Made by a program: the position numbers and the translations under genes. A stretch of DNA of 64,000 bases from an uncultured Candidatus Saccharibacteria bacterium (GTDB lineage: Bacteria > Patescibacteriota > Minisyncoccia > Phycocordibacterales > CALRHW01), in assembly GCA_964407105.1 (NCBI GenBank), contig CAYOUG010000002.1:11041-75040 (forward strand), written 5' to 3'. This document shows, piece after piece, positions 11,008-34,171 of the stretch (the first letter of the stretch is position 1; each line of letters starts with the position of its first letter). The notes beneath the pieces are model-generated. The model searched no databases, was not told the origin of the DNA, and saw nothing but the letters and a program-made list of their open reading frames with translations.

Positions 11008-11102
11008 AGGGCCTCCAGTTTGGTTGAATGAAAGGGAATTGTGAAAGGACGCTACGGTTTAAACCTTATCATAAAAAAATATAAAAGTCAAGTTTTTTAC
11101 AT

Positions 11103-12755: not shown

Positions 12756-12837
12756 TGGGCGAGGGGAGACTCGAACTCCCATGGATTACTCCACTAGTTC
12801 CTAAGACTAGCGCGGCTACCAATTACGCCACTCGCCC
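12756..12837 (-). tRNA. tRNA-Leu (anticodon UAG), type II with a long variable arm
   Basis: The reverse complement GGGCGAGTGGCGTAATTGGTAGCCGCGCTAGTCTTAGGAACTAGTGGAGTAATCCATGGGAGTTCGAGTCTCCCCTCGCCCA folds as a cloverleaf. The acceptor is GGGCGAG/CTCGCCC, the T-arm is GGGAG-TTCGAGT-CTCCC, and the anticodon loop is CTTAGGA. Confidence 0.85.
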
Positions 12838-12873
12838 GGCGTTTACTTACGCTCGCATATTTTTGCGAACTTG

Positions 12874-12946
12874 TCCGCCCACCAGGATTCGAACCTGGGA
12901 CCCACCGCTTAAGAGGCGGTTGCTCTACCAACTGAGCTATAGGCGG
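12874..12946 (-). tRNA. tRNA-Lys (anticodon CUU)
   Basis: The reverse complement CCGCCTATAGCTCAGTTGGTAGAGCAACCGCCTCTTAAGCGGTGGGTCCCAGGTTCGAATCCTGGTGGGCGGA has the D-arm GCTC-AGTTGGTA-GAGC, the anticodon loop CTCTTAA, and the T-loop TTCGAAT. Confidence 0.8.
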
Positions 12947-13008
12947 ATTCACACATTTTATATATTCACACGTTGTCTTTATAACACAAACTCACTGAAA
13001 ATTAAACC

Positions 13009-13095
13009 TGGTGCCCGGGGCGGGAATCGAACCCGCAAGAGCTTTAGCTCACGACATTTTAAGTGTCGCATGTTTACCAATTTCATCACCTGGGC
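13009..13095 (-). tRNA. tRNA-Leu (anticodon UAA), type II, with CCA encoded
   Basis: The reverse complement GCCCAGGTGATGAAATTGGTAAACATGCGACACTTAAAATGTCGTGAGCTAAAGCTCTTGCGGGTTCGATTCCCGCCCCGGGCACCA has the anticodon loop CTTAAAA and the T-arm GCGGG-TTCGATT-CCCGC. Confidence 0.8.
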
Positions 13096-13567
13096 GTTTC
13101 TTCCGATTCTTTCCTCTGTGGGTCAGTTTGAGACTGTGACAGTTTGGACAAAGAATCCTCAAATTTTCTAAACGATTATCATGGCTATCACCGTTTATAT
13201 GATCGAGTTCTAAGGGTAATCTACCATCTTCTGACCTTTTTGCCCACCCACACTCTACACATTTATTAGACATAAAACCCTCTTTTATTAATCTATTTTT
13301 TAACTTATAACTTTGGTAATAACTATCTTTAATTAATATTTTTTCAATAGGTAAAATGGGTTTTCCTATTCCCATCAGACCCTTATTCCATGATTTTCCC
13401 CGAAAATGTTTCGTGTCAATTTTATAATATTCTATATATTTTTTAATTTGTGAATAATTTCCACCAGCCTCAATAAGTCCAAGCTTTTTTATGACTTGTC
13501 TAAAATTTGTTGAAGACTCCGAGGCTTCTCTTAATTGTTCTTCTGTCCAACTTTTCTTTTTATTCAT
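13049..13567 (-). CDS. HNH endonuclease (homing-endonuclease-like)
   Basis: The HNH motif is CVECGWAKRSEDGRLPLELDHINGDSHDNRLENLRILCPNCHS. The N-terminal region (SWTEEQLREASESS..KKLGL..GGNY) is typical of phage/mobile HNH enzymes. The last roughly 47 nt of the frame overlap the 5' half of tRNA-Leu(TAA). Confidence 0.75.
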   Translation of the reverse strand: MNKKKSWTEEQLREASESSTNFRQVIKKLGLIEAGGNYSQIKKYIEYYKIDTKHFRGKSWNKGLMGIGKPILPIEKILIKDSYYQSYKLKNRLIKEGFMSNKCVECGWAKRSEDGRLPLELDHINGDSHDNRLENLRILCPNCHSLKLTHRGKNRKKRPGDEIGKHATLKMS

Positions 13568-13627
13568 TTTGCCAATTATTATAGACAAAAAGAGATAAAG
13601 AAATTATAAAAAAAAGATAAAATTTTG

Positions 13628-13701
13628 AGGCGTAGGCCGGGGTTGAACCGGCGCATAGCAGTTTTGCAGACTGCCGCGTTAACCAACTTCGCCACTACGC
13701 C
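13628..13701 (-). tRNA. tRNA-Cys (anticodon GCA)
   Basis: The reverse complement GGCGTAGTGGCGAAGTTGGTTAACGCGGCAGTCTGCAAAACTGCTATGCGCCGGTTCAACCCCGGCCTACGCCT has the anticodon loop CTGCAAA, the T-arm GCCGG-TTCAACC-CCGGC, and the acceptor GGCGTAG/CTACGCC. Confidence 0.8.
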
Positions 13702-27996: not shown

Positions 27997-28091
27997 AATG
28001 ATTGACAATATACTGTCGCATATGTTTTAATTTAAAAAGAGTGGGAATGGATTGTTTCCAATCCCATCTATTTTGCAAAAGGAGTAGATTC

Positions 28092-28571
28092 ATGTTCTCT
28101 CACAAGTTTTCTCGAATCGTGTCTCTGCTCGCATTGGTGGCTATTTTCTGTGCCAATGTCTTTAGTTGCTCAAAGGATCCAACCGCCGGGACGACGGCGG
28201 TATCACATTCTCCAAATCCACAACCTAGAATTGGGGGGTGGGCCTTCCAAGGACAACTTCCAATGAAGGTCGATATCAATTCTGCATATTTGCAGATTGT
28301 GCCGATGAGAGTTCTGAAAGTTGACAGAGTGATTGGCGTGGCTGACGTTGAACTTCCAAACGGAAACACCCTCTTCATGGACAATCCATATGTGGTTGCA
28401 CTAGAGGCGGGTACGTATTTCAGGTTTCTTCCAAATCACACCCCACAGTCTGTTTTGGTGCACTTGACCTTACCAAACTGGCAAGACCGTGATCAGATGG
28501 TGGAGGTGCTAGAATTGGCTGACATCGATTTCAGTAAAACCAACTATTACGATGACGCTGTCGGTCCTTAG
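28092..28571 (+). CDS. GC-rich secreted/lipoprotein of unknown function (paralog of 37468-37965)
   Basis: AAGGAG sits 8 nt upstream of the ATG. The signal peptide with lipobox-like VFSC|S is followed by a Thr/Pro linker and a conserved domain (..SAY..ELPNG..TYFRF..VEVL..IDF.K.NYYDD). Confidence 0.6.
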   Translation: MFSHKFSRIVSLLALVAIFCANVFSCSKDPTAGTTAVSHSPNPQPRIGGWAFQGQLPMKVDINSAYLQIVPMRVLKVDRVIGVADVELPNGNTLFMDNPYVVALEAGTYFRFLPNHTPQSVLVHLTLPNWQDRDQMVEVLELADIDFSKTNYYDDAVGP

Positions 28572-28677
28572 CTGGGTCGTCGGTTTCTCATTCTGGTGGT
28601 ACGGTCCATCATATAGCGCGTGACCTCTTTTGGGGTCGCGCGCTTTTTATTATTATTTTTTTGTTATACTTAAACAT

Positions 28678-28878
28678 ATGGATCAAGATATAAAAGATAA
28701 AATTGACGCACAAGATGCGAAACTAAATTTGATTTTAAAATCAGTAGAAAAAACGCGAAAATATTTTGTATGGATTTTTTGGATAACAATTATTGCTGTG
28801 GTTTTACCAATTATCGGACTAGCTTTTGCAATTCCTTCTTTTTTAGATACTTATGTAAAAACTTTGGGTAGTTTTTAA
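28678..28878 (+). CDS. small membrane protein (66 aa, one transmembrane helix)
   Basis: MDQDIKDKIDAQDAKLNLILKSVEKTRKYFVWIFWITIIAVVLPIIGLAFAIPSF. Confidence 0.4.
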   Translation: MDQDIKDKIDAQDAKLNLILKSVEKTRKYFVWIFWITIIAVVLPIIGLAFAIPSFLDTYVKTLGSF

Positions 28879-28901
28879 AATAAATTATTATTTTGTTACA
28901 T

Positions 28902-28957
28902 AAAAAAAGAGCCGAGAGGTCGTCGTAAGACGGCCACTCGGCTCTGAGCGTTTTTTT
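28902..28957. terminator. bidirectional terminator: A-run, GAGCCGAG, 20-nt loop, CTCGGCTC, T-run
   Basis: A perfect 8-bp GC-rich stem is flanked by an A7 run upstream and a T7 run downstream, between convergent genes. Confidence 0.6.
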
Positions 28958-28968
28958 GTTGCTTCAAA

Positions 28969-29598
28969 TCAAGAGCAAATTATTTCAAACAATTCGGTGA
29001 CGTGCTTAAACGCCTCACGTATCACCGTGTCTGAAATGAAGTAACCCATCTGCATCTCTTGTGCCGTCATTCTGAAAAGATCTTCCATTGCGTCATTTGT
29101 CACACTGATTGGCGACCCATCAAGTGTGTCCAGGTGTTGACCAGCAAGCCAAAAGTTGAGTGTTTGTGCCAAAACCTCCAAAGCTGTAAGTAGCGTGATT
29201 CCAGTTAGACCACCACGTTCACGATTTTCAGCACGTAATTTGTCCACAAAAACATCAGAGAACTTCTTTAACCTTTTTTCGAACCCATCTGGTTTCGTTC
29301 CCCCACGTGTCAGTGTGGAATTTTCTATGAACGATCTAAGTGTTCTTATGTTACTTCTTTCTGTTTCAGCAAAAACCTCCACACATTCACGCGCCAAAGG
29401 ATGTCTTACCCATGATTGTGTCTGCGATATCCAATCTTTCATTTGGACTTTGTGGACAGTATTCCAACGCGCAAGAATTGTTGGTAGATCTACCCGAGAA
29501 TTCTTCAGAGTTTCTCGGGTCCGGTCCATGAACGGCATTACGTGTGCCAAGATGTTTTGTTGAAAAGGATAGGTTGGGGTTTTGGTCGATATGCTCAC
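28969..29598 (-). CDS. GC-rich hypothetical all-alpha protein
   Basis: The product is 209 aa from a GTG preceded by GGAG. The composition is helical. An R-x4-H (RWNTVH) motif is noted, but no confident family was found. Confidence 0.45.
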   Translation of the reverse strand: MSISTKTPTYPFQQNILAHVMPFMDRTRETLKNSRVDLPTILARWNTVHKVQMKDWISQTQSWVRHPLARECVEVFAETERSNIRTLRSFIENSTLTRGGTKPDGFEKRLKKFSDVFVDKLRAENRERGGLTGITLLTALEVLAQTLNFWLAGQHLDTLDGSPISVTNDAMEDLFRMTAQEMQMGYFISDTVIREAFKHVTELFEIICS

Positions 29599-29753
29599 TT
29601 TTTTCTCCAATCAAGAAAGGGGATGAAAGACAATGACACAGCAGACAGTATTCCATTTTCGATAGTATAGGAAAAAATACATTTTCACAATATCAAAGTA
29701 TCTATTGTATTTTTTCTGGAATTGTATATAATCTTTTTCATATGGTTGTACGA

Positions 29754-30014: not shown

Positions 30015-30920
30015 ATGGCAAACAGGCATCTTAGCAGATCAATAGTCACACAATCGCTCTTTGAGTGGGATTTCAACCACAAAAGTGATTTAGAGGCTAT
30101 GGAGATTTTTAATCGAAATGCACAGGAATTCGCTCTTGGTATGGGCGATTTTTCTTTTATGGAGTCGCTTATGAAAAACGTGCTTGCGAAAAGAAAAGAT
30201 ATTGATGTGATTATTGAAAAAGCGGCGCCAGATTGGCCAATAGATAAAATTTCTATTATTGATCGAAACATTTTACGCATCGGTCTTTATGAACTTCTTT
30301 TTTCAGACAGAAAAGAGGTACCTCCAAAAGTGGCTATAAATGAGGCGATTGAACTTGCAAAAACATTTGGTGGTGATACTAGTGGTAAGTTTGTAAACGG
30401 TGTGCTCGGTGCTGTGTATAAAGAAATGGGTGAGCCGGGTAAAGAAGAAACATCAAAACGAAAACGCCATCCAGATATTCCAGATGATCAGGCGCCAATA
30501 GAAAAACTTGGCGGTGCTGTGGTGTATGCGCTTGATGGAGAAGATGTTTATTTGGCACTTGTGCACGACGTTTTTGGACACTGGACCCTTTCAAAGGGGC
30601 ATTTTGAAGAGGATGAAGAAGATGTCTCGGGTATCAAACGTGTGATAAAAGATGAGCTCGGTCTTTCTATTGAAGTAAAAGAAGAACTTGGTAACAATAG
30701 CTACATTGCATTTGATCCTGAAAAAGGAAAGATAAAAAAGATGGTGCATTACTATTTGGCAGAGTCAAAATTTAAAGATATTAAATTAAAAGAAAGTGGT
30801 GGACTAGATGATGTGCGGTGGTTTAAACTCGCCGACATACTTGACCTCAATTTTTATAATGATATTCTGCCACTTGTAACTAAGGCAATAAATATTTTAC
30901 TGAAAAAGGGAGAAAAGTAG
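30015..30920 (+). CDS. nusB: NusB antitermination factor fused to a C-terminal Nudix-fold domain
   Basis: Residues 1-140 are NusB-like (RHLSRSIVTQSLFEWDF, ...VPPKVAINEAIELAKTFGGDTSGKFVNGVLGAV). Residues about 160-300 have a Nudix-like beta-grasp and a box GHWTLSKGHFEEDEEDVSGIKRVIKDELGL, in which the consensus REx2EE is replaced by RVIKDE. Confidence 0.7.
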   Translation: MANRHLSRSIVTQSLFEWDFNHKSDLEAMEIFNRNAQEFALGMGDFSFMESLMKNVLAKRKDIDVIIEKAAPDWPIDKISIIDRNILRIGLYELLFSDRKEVPPKVAINEAIELAKTFGGDTSGKFVNGVLGAVYKEMGEPGKEETSKRKRHPDIPDDQAPIEKLGGAVVYALDGEDVYLALVHDVFGHWTLSKGHFEEDEEDVSGIKRVIKDELGLSIEVKEELGNNSYIAFDPEKGKIKKMVHYYLAESKFKDIKLKESGGLDDVRWFKLADILDLNFYNDILPLVTKAINILLKKGEK

Positions 30921-30935
30921 ACGGTGCGGAAAATA

Positions 30936-31640
30936 ATGCGAATTATGAATATAGACTTTTCAAAATTTGAAAAAAAGGCCGGAGTAATATTTAGCGACAA
31001 AAAACTTTTAAAACAAGCTTTTGTTCATCGTTCATATATTAATGAAAACAAGGATTCTGGTTTTGATCATAATGAACGTTTGGAATTTTTGGGTGATGCG
31101 GTGCTCGAACTTGTAATTACTGACTATTTGTATCAAAAATATCCAAATGAAGACGAGGGTCATATGACAAGTTTGCGCTCAGCTCTTGTAAATGCCACCA
31201 CTTGTGCACAGGTGGCGACAACACTTGATGTCAATGATTTTCTTCTTCTTTCGCGCGGTGAAACAAAAGACACCGGCCGAGCTCGACAATATATTTTAGC
31301 AAATACACTTGAGGCGGTGATCGGTGCTATTTATTTAGATCAAGGTTATGAAATAGCGAAAAAATTTATTTACGAACATATTTCTCCGCTAGTTGAAGAT
31401 ATAATTTCAAAAAAGGCATGGATTGATGCAAAAAGTCTTTTTCAAGAAAAAGCTCAGGAGGTGGAGGGGGTTACTCCATTGTATAAAACAACAAAAGAAA
31501 CTGGTCCAGACCACGATAAGCGATTTACTGTAGCTGTGCATTTAGGTAAAAAACTCATAGCTTCTGGAGAAGGTGAATCAAAACAAGATGCTGAGCAAGA
31601 AGCGGCACGCAAAGGACTTATAAAAATGGGTTGGGAATAA
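30936..31640 (+). CDS. rnc: ribonuclease III
   Basis: The signature is ERLEFLGDAVLELVITDYLY. A C-terminal dsRBD is present. Confidence 0.9.
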   Translation: MRIMNIDFSKFEKKAGVIFSDKKLLKQAFVHRSYINENKDSGFDHNERLEFLGDAVLELVITDYLYQKYPNEDEGHMTSLRSALVNATTCAQVATTLDVNDFLLLSRGETKDTGRARQYILANTLEAVIGAIYLDQGYEIAKKFIYEHISPLVEDIISKKAWIDAKSLFQEKAQEVEGVTPLYKTTKETGPDHDKRFTVAVHLGKKLIASGEGESKQDAEQEAARKGLIKMGWE

Positions 31641-31915: not shown

Positions 31916-34171
31916 ATGTATCTCAAAAGCCTTGAACTCAATGGATTTAAGTCTTTTGCCAAAAAAAGCACACTCGATTTTAAATCACCAATTTCTTCAA
32001 TTGTTGGGCCAAACGGATCTGGCAAATCAAACATTGCTGAAGCTTTTCGTTTTGTGTTGGGTGAACAATCAATAAAATCTTTGCGTGGAAAAAGAGGAGA
32101 AGACTTGATTTTCAATGGTAGCAGTGAAGTGCCGCGTTCAAATCGTGCCTCAGTAAAAGTTGTTTTTGATAACCATAATCGTTTTTTAAATATAGATTTT
32201 GATGAAGTTACTTTAGAGCGTGTTGTGCATCGCGACTCGGTGAATGAATATTTTATCAATGGTAGTGTGGTGCGTCTGAAAGATATTATCGAGCTTCTTG
32301 CTCAAGCACACATAGGTTCTTCTGGACACCACATTATTTCTCAGGGTGAGGCAGATAAAATTTTGAATGCGAATATGCGTGAACGCAGAGCAATGATTGA
32401 AGATGCGCTTGGACTTAAAATTTATCAATATAAAAGGCAGGAGAGCGAAAGAAAACTCGAAAAAACACAAGAAAATATTGTATCTGTAGAATCGCTTAGA
32501 AAAGAGGTGGCGCCACATTTGCGATTTTTGAAAAAACAGGTAGAAAAAGTTGAAAAAACATTTCAAATGAAAGAAGAGCTCCGTGCACTTTATATGGAGT
32601 ATCTAAAACGTGAAGATGAATATTTAAAAAAAGAAAAAACATCACTTGATTTAGAAAAAAATCCGTTAGACCAAGAACTTAAAAAACTTGAAGAAGAACT
32701 TTTACAAGCAAAAAAAATTCTAGAACAATCTACTGAAAAAGATAAAAAAAGTGCAGAATTAATTTCTCTGGAAGAACAAATTCGTTCTGTGCGCGTACAT
32801 AAAGATGAATTTGTACACAACCTTGGAAAAATTGAGGGAGAGATTTCTTCGGAGGAACGTATTATTAAAAAACAGCACGAAATCGAGCGTTCTGAAGATG
32901 GGAAAATGGTAAGTTTCAAGGATATCGCTCGTGTGGCAGATGAAGTAAAAAAAGAGATTAAAATAGTTGATGGTTTAAATAGTCTTGAAGAAGTTAAAAA
33001 ACTTCTTCGGGTGGTTGCGGATATGATTATTGGTTTTGTGGCGTCACATCGCACGGCTGGCAACGATTCACTTTCAAAAGAATCAGAAGTGCTTGTGGTT
33101 TCTTTAAATGCCGAGAAAAAAGATATTGAAAATAAAATTCAAGAATTAAAACAGAAAGAAGATGAGTTACAACTAAAATACAACGAGCTAAAAAACGTTA
33201 TCGAACGAGAAAAAGATACAAACAGGCAAGCAGAACGAGATATGTTTTCTGTTATGACGCGTCAGCAAGAGGTGTTTTCAAAACTAGCTACCATTCGTGC
33301 TTCACAAGAAAAAATTCGAATCGAAGAAGAGGATTTTAAACGTGAACTCAATGAAGCTGGGGTGCTTATTGGTCGTGCGGTTTTAGATTTTGTTAACTAT
33401 ATAGTTTCTTCAGATGGTGACCAATCTCGTGGTGCTCAAGAAGAACGTCGACGCGCTATTGAGAAAATTAAAATTAGGATTGAAGATGCTGGTGGTAGTT
33501 CTGGTGAAGATATTTTGAAAGAATATAAAGAGGTCAGCGAGCGTGACACATTTTTGGAGCGTGAGTTGGAAGATTTACATAAATCAGCAGAATCTCTCAA
33601 GAAACTTATTGAGGAATTGGATGAAAAACTCACAACAGAATTTAAAAATGGTGTAGAAAAAATCAATACACAATTTGAACATTTTTTTGCCCTAATGTTT
33701 GGTGGTGGACAAGCGTCTCTTAAAATAGTAAAAGAAAAAAAGAAAAAACGTCTTGATACAGATTTGGGCGTGCTTGATATAGAAAATGTGGAAGAGATTT
33801 TTGAGGAAGAAGGGGAAGAAGGTTTGGATATTGAAGTAAATTTACCAAGAAAAAAAATAAAAGGTCTTGTGATGCTTTCTGGCGGCGAGCGAGCTCTCAC
33901 TTCTATTGCGCTTCTTTTCGCAGTATCTCAAGTAAACCCCCCACCATTTATTATTCTTGATGAAACTGACGCGGCGCTTGACGAAGCAAATTCAAAAAAA
34001 TACGGAGATATGATAGAAAGTCTTTCAAAATATTCTCAACTTATTTTGATTACTCACAATCGCGAAACAATGTCTCGTGCGGGAATTTTATACGGCGTGA
34101 CCATGGGTTCTGGTGGAGTTTCAAAACTTCTTTCTATTGAATTTGAAGAGGCGGTGGTGGTGGCGAAGTAA
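31916..34171 (+). CDS. smc: SMC-family ATPase (short chromosome-partition Smc-like protein with no obvious hinge)
   Basis: The Walker A is GPNGSGKSN, the central coiled coil is long, and the signature LSGGERALTSIALLFA and D-loop FIILDETDAALD follow. It is 751 aa. Confidence 0.65.
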   Translation: MYLKSLELNGFKSFAKKSTLDFKSPISSIVGPNGSGKSNIAEAFRFVLGEQSIKSLRGKRGEDLIFNGSSEVPRSNRASVKVVFDNHNRFLNIDFDEVTLERVVHRDSVNEYFINGSVVRLKDIIELLAQAHIGSSGHHIISQGEADKILNANMRERRAMIEDALGLKIYQYKRQESERKLEKTQENIVSVESLRKEVAPHLRFLKKQVEKVEKTFQMKEELRALYMEYLKREDEYLKKEKTSLDLEKNPLDQELKKLEEELLQAKKILEQSTEKDKKSAELISLEEQIRSVRVHKDEFVHNLGKIEGEISSEERIIKKQHEIERSEDGKMVSFKDIARVADEVKKEIKIVDGLNSLEEVKKLLRVVADMIIGFVASHRTAGNDSLSKESEVLVVSLNAEKKDIENKIQELKQKEDELQLKYNELKNVIEREKDTNRQAERDMFSVMTRQQEVFSKLATIRASQEKIRIEEEDFKRELNEAGVLIGRAVLDFVNYIVSSDGDQSRGAQEERRRAIEKIKIRIEDAGGSSGEDILKEYKEVSERDTFLERELEDLHKSAESLKKLIEELDEKLTTEFKNGVEKINTQFEHFFALMFGGGQASLKIVKEKKKKRLDTDLGVLDIENVEEIFEEEGEEGLDIEVNLPRKKIKGLVMLSGGERALTSIALLFAVSQVNPPPFIILDETDAALDEANSKKYGDMIESLSKYSQLILITHNRETMSRAGILYGVTMGSGGVSKLLSIEFEEAVVVAK

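Follow-up and report, generated by a model that had tools for sequence, protein, structure and literature searches.

NusB is a highly conserved bacterial transcription factor and one of the best studied, and to our knowledge its textbook description holds no accessory domain. The protein, captured by the PF01029 and TIGR01951 models, is the BoxA-binding partner of S10 (NusE) in the rRNA and lambda-N antitermination complexes, and its solved structures comprise ~140–150 amino acids (aa). The gene described here lies at 30015..30920 on the plus strand of a 64,000-nt stretch of the patescibacterial contig CAYOUG010000002.1 (contig positions 11,041 to 75,040; the whole stretch is referred to as the window), and encodes 301 aa plus a stop codon. 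Residues 1–138 match NusB in full. Where the solved proteins end, however, the window protein continues with a GEPGK motif, a linker and a 135-aa Nudix domain, and it also differs from known NusB in that its gene is placed between rpmF and rnc.

The Nudix half can be compared with several described families. With the hydrolases of diadenosine polyphosphates (ApnA), i.e. NUDT2, CT771/NudH and the enzymes of Caenorhabditis elegans, Plasmodium falciparum and Aquifex, it has in common an H/R-W-T-x-x-K-G-H lead-in to the Nudix box, an aromatic residue ~16–17 residues past the box, the K..K phosphate ligands and a Y-[FYW]-L-A strand. Unlike these enzymes, it is fused to NusB, carries Val for the Glu of the RE pair (RE-Glu), Asp for the first Glu of the EE pair and Gly for the Glu outside the box, and its catalytic positions vary within the fusion family. 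RppH, which acts on RNA 5′ polyphosphate ends including nucleoside tetraphosphate (Np4) caps, as two reports state (PMC7144940, PMC8833179), resembles it in the Nudix fold and in a history shared with the ApnA hydrolases, but the window protein falls far below the cutoff of the RppH model and lacks the RE-Glu equivalent. NrtR likewise joins an impaired Nudix domain to a nucleic-acid-binding module, and its Nudix domain (3gz8) is a structural match (TMt, a Foldseek template modelling score, of 0.66); NrtR, however, has a winged-helix DNA-binding domain, an ADP-ribose ligand and a place in the ADPRase-like branch, whereas the fusion combines an RNA-binding antitermination factor with the ApnA-hydrolase-like branch. 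CFIm25 (NUDT21), a Nudix protein without two of the box glutamates that binds diadenosine tetraphosphate (Ap4A, 2.4 μM) and ATP without hydrolysis and serves RNA 3′-end processing (PMC2425470), follows the same principle of a degenerate-box Nudix in an RNA-processing complex, a likeness that is functional and not familial. It has lost the second and fourth box glutamates, while the fusion has lost the second, partly the third, and the one outside the box; CFIm25 is moreover eukaryotic, dimeric and unfused to a transcription factor. Our best reading of the window protein, from alignments and family conservation, is that its Nudix half would be a non-catalytic, or at most feebly catalytic, module that binds polyphosphate or RNA 5′ ends.

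The original prediction, made from the letters alone, was of a NusB continuing into a Nudix-like domain with an incomplete catalytic box, immediately before the RNase III gene. Each of these elements held. The gene opens with ATG and runs in one unbroken frame; a stop or frameshift between the two halves was looked for and none was found, and both Pfam domains score above cutoff in the same 301-aa protein. The all-helical NusB domain (30015..30428, +, residues 1–138) matched PF01029 over residues 7–136 with 117.7 bits against a cutoff of 23.1, spanning profile positions 3–133 of 133, and the NCBIfam nusB equivalog TIGR01951 with 127 bits against 88.35. Using phmmer, we found the solved NusB proteins of Thermotoga maritima (2.5e-20), Aquifex (1.6e-17) and Escherichia coli (~2e-15), the sequence matches including the E. 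coli NusB chains of the antitermination-complex entries 5ms0, 6gov and 6tqn. The signature VPxKVAINEAIELAK..G....KFVNGVL was also present. An AlphaFold2 model of the fusion protein, built from a 67-sequence alignment (mean predicted local distance difference test, pLDDT, of 82), placed the NusB helices at residues 4–20, 25–39, 46–58, 60–70, 81–96 and 104–138, with pLDDT mostly 75–94. The modelled half superposed on the NusB of the Aquifex NusB–NusE–BoxA complex (3r2c) with a template modelling (TM) score of 0.88 and a root-mean-square deviation (rmsd) of 1.9 Å, and Foldseek comparison with 3r2c, 3r2d and 4eya gave TMt 0.87–0.89 and rmsd 1.7–1.9 Å. By every sequence and fold criterion residues 1–138 are thus a NusB, with binding of S10 and BoxA predicted.

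The linker (30429..30497, +, residues 139–161) opens with G-E-P-G-K (residues 139–143, 30429–30443), and residues 141–151 are predicted to be disordered (pLDDT <50). The motif YKE.GEPGK at its start is invariant in the 120 closest homologues and is kept in about half of the divergent fusions, while the remaining linker varies in length and sequence; it may serve as a hinge or docking motif. A fuller form, YKE.GEPGK..SK, which takes in flanking residues of the stretch Y135–K148, stands at the start of the predicted disorder.

The C-terminal domain (30498..30908, +, residues 162–298) matched PF00293 (NUDIX) over residues 169–281 with 39.0 bits against a cutoff of 21.1, and with 41.2 bits when the C-terminal half was scanned alone. 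Its modelled pLDDT is mostly 75–91, and Foldseek returned 554 PDB matches at E≤0.001, the top Nudix matches with a probability of 1.00. The closest solved relatives by phmmer were CT771 (4.8e-06), human NUDT2 (1.5e-05 to 3e-05), the C. elegans enzyme (2.1e-04) and the Aquifex enzyme (1.9e-03), and the corresponding fold comparison gave TMt of 0.84 for Aquifex Ap4A hydrolase, 0.83 for Thermus Ndx1, 0.75 for CT771 and 0.72 for the C. elegans protein. Both sequence and model thus place the domain in the NUDT2/CT771-type asymmetric ApnA hydrolase subfamily. The RppH model NF001936 scored only 18.1 bits on the whole protein and 19.9 bits on the C-terminal half, against a cutoff of 118. The Pfam family of CFIm25/NUDT21 gave no match, a Pfam scan at E≤1 returning PF01029 and PF00293 alone, and no helix-turn-helix (HTH) or winged HTH domain of the NrtR type was found in the Pfam and NCBIfam scans; the protein ends three residues past the Nudix C-terminal helix.

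Within this domain the Nudix box GHFEEDEEDVSGIKRVIKDELGL (30597..30665, +, residues 195–217) is degenerate on direct reading of the sequence, G195-HFEED-E201-EDVSGIK-R209-V210-I-K-D213-E214-L-G-L. Compared with the consensus G-x5-E-x7-R-E-U-x-E-E-x-G-U, G195, E201, R209, E214, G216 and L217 are kept, and V210 (codon 30642–30644, +) and D213 (codon 30651–30653, +) stand in place of Glu, precisely the changes that the original prediction had described. Aligned to NUDT2, V210 corresponds to E58, D213 to E61 and E214 to E62, and the same register is obtained against the unfused Nudix protein of Saccharibacteria (TM7). NUDT2 acts on 5′-triphosphorylated RNA (PPP-RNA), and its E58A substitution abolishes this dephosphorylation (PMC8616924); the same substitution is carried by the PDB entries 1xsa and 4ick/4ijx. 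Because the glutamate equivalent to E58 is V210 here, and E58A is inactive, the domain, though derived from the subfamily, should not be filed as an Ap4A hydrolase.

In active relatives a further metal-binding glutamate lies outside the box, a role which we take to be shared by MutT Glu98 and C. elegans Glu103. In DHNTPase, whose metal site was overlaid with those of Ap4A hydrolase and RppH, the cluster is formed by two box glutamates, the RE-Glu and the last one, together with Glu117, which lies ~48 residues past the box (PMC5526541). Its slot in the window protein is the loop G262-G263-L-D265-D266 (30798..30812, +), where G263 stands opposite the Glu that is conserved in NUDT2 (SHEHQ), CT771 (PDEIC) and the canonical stand-alone relatives. 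The three metal-Glu positions are therefore read from the alignment as V210, E214 and G263, so that of the metal-binding glutamates, whose retention had been left for checking, one is kept and the other two are replaced; the Nudix half appears to lack two of its three metal-ligating glutamates. In 149 of 154 fusion proteins position 263 is Gly, and the 32 whose box is canonical are all among them. In contrast to this decay, the phosphate- and base-binding residues of the domain seem, from the alignments, to be conserved. K194 (153/154) corresponds to human K42, H/R189 to the His before Trp, K239/K242 to K87/K89, and F233 (Y or F in 113/154) to NUDT2 Y82. The P1-site roles of these residues in human NUDT2, including the His, K42, Y82 and K89, have been described (PMC4734340), as has the base-stacking aromatic ~17 residues past the box (PMC2425470).

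To describe variation within the family we used the 120 best protein homologues (68–100% identity, ~270–340 aa, most with both Pfam domains on record) as a close set, and a neighbour-joining tree of 154 full-length fusions. Mean pairwise identity in the close set was 0.78 for NusB, 0.74 for the Nudix domain outside the box and 0.47 for the 23-residue box, which makes the box the least conserved segment of the domain; only G195 and E214 are essentially fixed within it. Among the close homologues, V (46), E (33) and G (16) are commonest at position 210, with K, N, A, C, I, S or Q in the rest, and position 213 carries E in 65 and D in 49. A canonical box is present in 28 of 120 close fusions, 5 of 38 divergent fusions and 12 of 17 stand-alone relatives. 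On the tree, position 210 changes at least 53 times among 11 states, being V, K, G, I, A, N, C, S, Q or T in 114 of 154 proteins, and the box flips between canonical and degenerate at least 22 times, whereas D185, W190, K194, Y230, Y246, W269 and Y281 change only once or twice each. The segment that usually marks a Nudix protein is thus the least constrained one here. Selection on the catalytic positions has been relaxed specifically in the fused lineage, with the fold and the rest of the substrate cleft under strong purifying selection.

The fusion is widespread in Paceibacteria. All 120 close homologues bear no other name than "transcription antitermination factor NusB" and come from Paceibacterota, Parcubacteria, Zambryskibacteria and unclassified Patescibacteria. 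On genomes, a search returned 598 related stretches, of which the best 80 are counted here as verified full-length loci, because one of the search patterns was a general NusB motif. In these 80 species-representative loci, whose titles include Kaiser-, Zambryski-, Taylor-, Yonath- and Nomurabacteria, a single frame covers residues 1 to ~295–301 (to 286 in one). Since the 80 best loci are each in one frame and the 120 homologues are ~270–340 aa long, the fusion is not an assembly artefact. A search with the C-terminal domain against 50%-identity cluster representatives gave 988 matches at E≤1e-3, and 60 of the best 150 of these also carry NusB, with Nudix identity down to ~27–30%. The fusion is thus clade-wide and old within the class Paceibacteria, to which these homologues also assign the window organism. 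The survey of fused versus stand-alone forms that the original prediction had called for gave a divided answer, with the fusion in 80 of the 80 best loci and separate nusB and nudix genes in a minority of rnc-baited loci (below). Its remark that the combination is not known from model organisms was sound; the architecture is absent there, yet it is common in Paceibacteria and already in the databases, where it is labelled simply NusB. Full-text literature searches found no mention of a NusB–Nudix fusion. One further locus (L083), which at first resembled a separate-gene form (L32, NusB of 133 aa, NUDIX of 141 aa, rnc), was rejected as such, as it differs by a single in-frame TAA at 940–942 in place of the conserved Tyr135 codon (GAV*KELGEP) on a low-coverage metagenome contig; a sequencing error or a recent nonsense mutation probably explains the stop.

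The gene order is conserved as well. In the best 80 loci, rnc lies directly downstream in 76, L32 (rpmF) directly upstream in 75, and a relative of the 751-aa open reading frame (ORF) found downstream of rnc in the window in 69; rnc also adjoins a fusion with only ~33% Nudix identity. We then used an RNase III alignment as bait on metagenome contigs, which avoids the bias of a fusion query, and 54 of the 80 loci obtained had at least 950 nt upstream of rnc. Among these 54, the upstream region held the NusB–Nudix fusion in 8, nusB and nudix as separate genes in 8, plain nusB only in 27–28 and neither in ~10. The eight separate-gene loci (L119, L120, L122, L123, L125, L129, L136 and L152, with the pair ~1 kb upstream of rnc each) differ in the relative frames of the two genes (0 to 1, 1 to 2 or 0 to 2, or one frame interrupted by a stop and restarted at a new Met), and the separation is for this reason genuine. 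A short contig (L112) showed the order nusB–rnc–nudix.

By the source names, the separate form belongs to Saccharibacteria/TM7, where nusB, a 165-aa Nudix protein and rnc form a cluster in which nusB and nudix often overlap by a few bases, and the Nudix protein is annotated merely as a generic NUDIX/MutT/YjhB-type hydrolase. It is of the same subfamily and occupies the same slot between nusB and rnc as the fused domain, but is encoded as an independent protein, from a start codon of its own. Of 119 homologues 117 have a canonical box, and no other segment is as well conserved (identity 0.95 in the box versus 0.86 elsewhere), the reverse of the fused family; the unfused protein is apparently an active enzyme. 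The fused and TM7 domains share 32% identity (E 6e-13); a common origin is supported by subfamily and genomic position rather than by sequence alone. Thus nusB, rnc and a Nudix of this subfamily go together in three distinct gene orders, across two classes of the candidate phyla radiation (CPR). The conserved synteny with rnc, together with the lineages that keep nusB, nudix and rnc as separate adjacent genes, strengthens the link to RNA processing. P0185, P0201 and P0215, the stand-alone proteins nearest to the fused domain, were found on short contigs or in a phage-like region and are uninformative about synteny; P0185 (L170, 3001–3453) has a canonical box, and its surroundings, which include genes for an integrase, a DNA methylase and a Rep-O-like protein, resemble a phage or mobile element.

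The gene encodes a Paceibacteria (CPR/Patescibacteria) NusB joined by a flexible linker of ~20 residues to a Nudix domain derived from a NUDT2/CT771-type hydrolase of dinucleoside polyphosphates or RNA 5′ polyphosphates. In the model that we propose, the ancestral Nudix enzyme would have been active in the same pathway as NusB and RNase III, i.e. the transcription and maturation of rRNA or another structured RNA. After fusion, catalysis would have become dispensable and the domain would have been kept as a binding module, a pseudoenzyme. NusB–S10 would hold BoxA while the Nudix module binds, without cutting, the 5′-terminal tri- or tetraphosphate (ppp- or Np4-capped) of the same transcript, so that the leader would be recognized at two points, or its 5′ end shielded or marked until RNase III processing. 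We hold this two-point recognition of a nascent leader tentatively, at a little under an even chance, the ligand being putative. A 5′ polyphosphate is the likeliest ligand class because the substrates of the subfamily are dinucleoside polyphosphates (NpnN) and, for NUDT2, PPP-RNA; because NpnN also cap bacterial RNA 5′ ends, from which they are reportedly removed by RppH and ApaH (PMC7044304, PMC8833179); because the recurrent partners of the domain handle RNA; and because a degenerate Nudix of the same subfamily sits on an S1–RNase E/G protein (P0237). The original prediction had offered a nucleotide-sensing module as its second choice, and this fits better than its first, since the box is decayed and the ligand-site residues appear conserved.

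Several observations weigh against this model. The predicted TM score (pTM) of the AlphaFold2 model is 0.48, so the packing of the two domains carries no confidence, and neither the window nor any fetched locus holds an rRNA gene with its leader and BoxA. In compact CPR genomes gene order can be conserved without functional coupling, and in the neighbour-joining tree the fused domains are monophyletic with TM7 on a separate long branch, the two not being sisters. G263 itself lies in a loop whose alignment may be off by one or two positions, and three residues ahead of it is a glutamate, E260, which is not conserved among close homologues (E59/K35/N15). E214 is invariant, D or E occupies position 213 in 133 of 154 proteins and D265/D266 are conserved; these carboxylates could hold a metal–phosphate complex and might even be enough for catalysis. 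Slow turnover may persist in the window protein, and judging from their complete boxes some of roughly a quarter of the close family may still be enzymes. The latter points lead to the rival view that the domain is an active hydrolase (RppH-like, Np4-decapping or acting on Ap4A), brought to nascent rRNA by NusB and working with E201, D213, E214, D265 and D266. E201 is kept in 107 and D265/D266 in ~130 of the 154 proteins, full boxes persist in 28 of 120 close and 5 of 38 divergent members, the ancestral subfamily is enzymatic and its unfused Saccharibacteria version looks fully active, and a protein general base may not be strictly required if the metal cluster activates water (PMC5526541). 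We nevertheless regard an active hydrolase as unlikely, as V210 occupies the site where Ala inactivates NUDT2, position 210 is non-Glu in 114 of 154 proteins and has changed at least 53 times, which a catalytic residue would not do, Gly has taken the place of the extra-box Glu in 149 of 154, and the box is the least conserved segment, opposite to the unfused control. For the window protein specifically, these replacements, the drifting catalytic positions and an RppH score of 18–20 bits against 118 tell against the catalytic coupling of antitermination to RppH-like 5′-end processing that the original prediction had proposed.

The nearest alternative to two-point recognition is that the regulatory ligand is a free dinucleoside polyphosphate such as Ap4A. 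In its wider form, a sensor of a free small molecule (Ap4A, other NpnN, ATP or (p)ppGpp) would tune NusB-dependent rRNA antitermination to stress or growth. Dinucleoside polyphosphates are the cognate ligands of the subfamily and the P1-site residues are conserved; CFIm25 offers a precedent in its binding of Ap4A at 2.4 μM with no hydrolysis (PMC2425470), the NrtR Nudix domain 3gz8 is among the structural matches, and P0229, with sigma70_r4 and DnaA-C HTH domains fused to a related Nudix, has an architecture typical of ligand-sensing regulators. A flexible linker with no predicted inter-domain contact, however, leaves no obvious allosteric route to NusB, and the recurrent partners, i.e. NusB, RNase III, RNase E/G and a cold-shock-like domain, point to RNA, so that we consider a free-ligand sensor improbable too. 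Less probable again is a domain that binds no nucleotide and acts as a protein–protein scaffold in the antitermination complex, for which the moonlighting enzyme SuhB in the E. coli rrn complex is the comparison, or as an aid to NusB folding or stability. The loss of catalytic residues from a strongly conserved fold would suit such a role, the YKE.GEPGK motif could be a docking site, and NusB–Nudix moves as a single cassette into HEPN/STAND proteins. But the best-conserved residues, W190, K194, Y230/F233, K242, Y246 and W269, line the substrate site of active ApnA hydrolases and do not form a new fusion-specific surface patch, and ~74% identity across 130 residues in the close family is more than one would look for in a mere stabilizer.

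If the proposed binding of RNA 5′ ends by a NusB-fused pseudoenzyme is right, it predicts an unrecognized player in the rRNA transcription and maturation of CPR bacteria, whose ribosome biogenesis is already known to be unusual. The family would be a natural example of an enzyme turned pseudoenzyme upon fusion, with a built-in unfused control in Saccharibacteria, and would tie the field of dinucleoside polyphosphates and Np4 caps to transcription antitermination. Saccharibacteria are genetically tractable, with genes reportedly having been targeted there (bioRxiv 10.1101/2024.11.25.624915).

The same Nudix subfamily also occurs in other architectures. P0265 (1219 aa; L086, 98–3757) combines HEPN_Swt1, an NB-ARC/STAND NTPase, TPR, NusB and then Nudix, the HEPN_Swt1 match being weak (3.5e-04, under the Pfam cutoff). 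P0202 (577 aa; locus L084, 1867–8217 with neighbours) is TPR-like, with a weak cold-shock-like region and NusB–Nudix, and is the counterpart of the C-terminal 550 residues of P0265 (31% identity, E 4e-81); its cold-shock match (PF00313, 1.9e-03, under cutoff) precedes NusB and aligns with the corresponding part of P0265. The order in L084 is an NB-ARC gene, the P0202 gene, a DDE transposase and a HEPN_Swt1 gene. Both proteins have degenerate boxes (R-V-I-K-E-E and R-I-I-E-R-E). A homologue search with P0202 returned only P0202 itself, and PADLOC gave no convincing model for HEPN/STAND/NusB–Nudix, its best match being PDC-M34B (1.4e-07) to the HEPN end of P0265, with all others at E≥4.5e-04. 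The arrangement resembles a conflict or defence-type system that has yet to be catalogued. STAND proteins generally sense through their C-terminal region, and antitermination machinery is known to be hijacked by phages. From the two sequences in hand, the cassette may be an RNA sensor or a decoy of the host antitermination factor, a role that would fit non-catalytic recognition by NusB–Nudix; if true, bacteria would here have an equivalent of the integrated decoys found in plant nucleotide-binding leucine-rich repeat receptors (NLRs), guarding the antitermination machinery. The broadest version, in which a two-headed RNA cassette for BoxA and a 5′ polyphosphate or Np4 end couples antitermination, 5′-end status and RNase III and has also been captured as a HEPN/STAND sensor or decoy, is a long shot.

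P0237 (1074 aa; L085, 6001–9225) carries S1, RNase E/G and thioredoxin-like regions followed by two tandem C-terminal NUDT2-like Nudix domains, both with degenerate boxes, and by its sequence appears to be a second case of a catalytically decayed Nudix on an RNA-processing protein. P0229 (379 aa) consists of a sigma-70 region-4-like HTH, a DnaA C-terminal HTH and a Nudix domain of the subfamily (box G-E-R-K-E-E), and looks like a transcription regulator with a Nudix sensor.

In the window, the fusion gene is preceded by rpmF, encoding ribosomal protein L32 (29742..29957, +; Pfam Ribosomal_L32p 1.6e-17), and followed by rnc (30924..31640, +; Ribonucleas_3_3 1e-39, Ribonuclease_3 5.2e-29, dsrm 3.6e-15). 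The position directly before rnc that had been predicted is thus correct, with a gap of 3 nt to a GTG and 15–24 nt to the first ATGs; the true rnc start is likely the ATG at 30936 or 30945. No terminator-like site was found between the two genes, which are probably co-transcribed. Downstream of rnc lies the large 751-aa ORF (31916..34171, +), a putative smc as read from its translation. Besides the fusion gene, no second NusB or Nudix gene was found in the 64-kb window. A promoter scan of the window gave 18 sites against 12.6 ± 3.9 expected, i.e. not above background; neither the window nor the 170 fetched loci showed a 16S or 23S motif, and the BoxA-like strings in the window are AT-rich matches at chance level.

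Between rnhB and rpmF, the ~1.7 kb at 27997–29741 contain unannotated ORFs of 189 aa (28002–28571, +), 82 aa (28630–28878, +) and 213 aa (28969–29610, −) and a strong terminator-like hairpin at 28615–28644. The rnhB–rpmF distance is only ~40 nt in the closest relative (L001), and because this spacing differs widely among relatives, the interval is a variable insertion spot. Elsewhere in the window, four tRNA genes are clustered at 12756–13701 on the minus strand.

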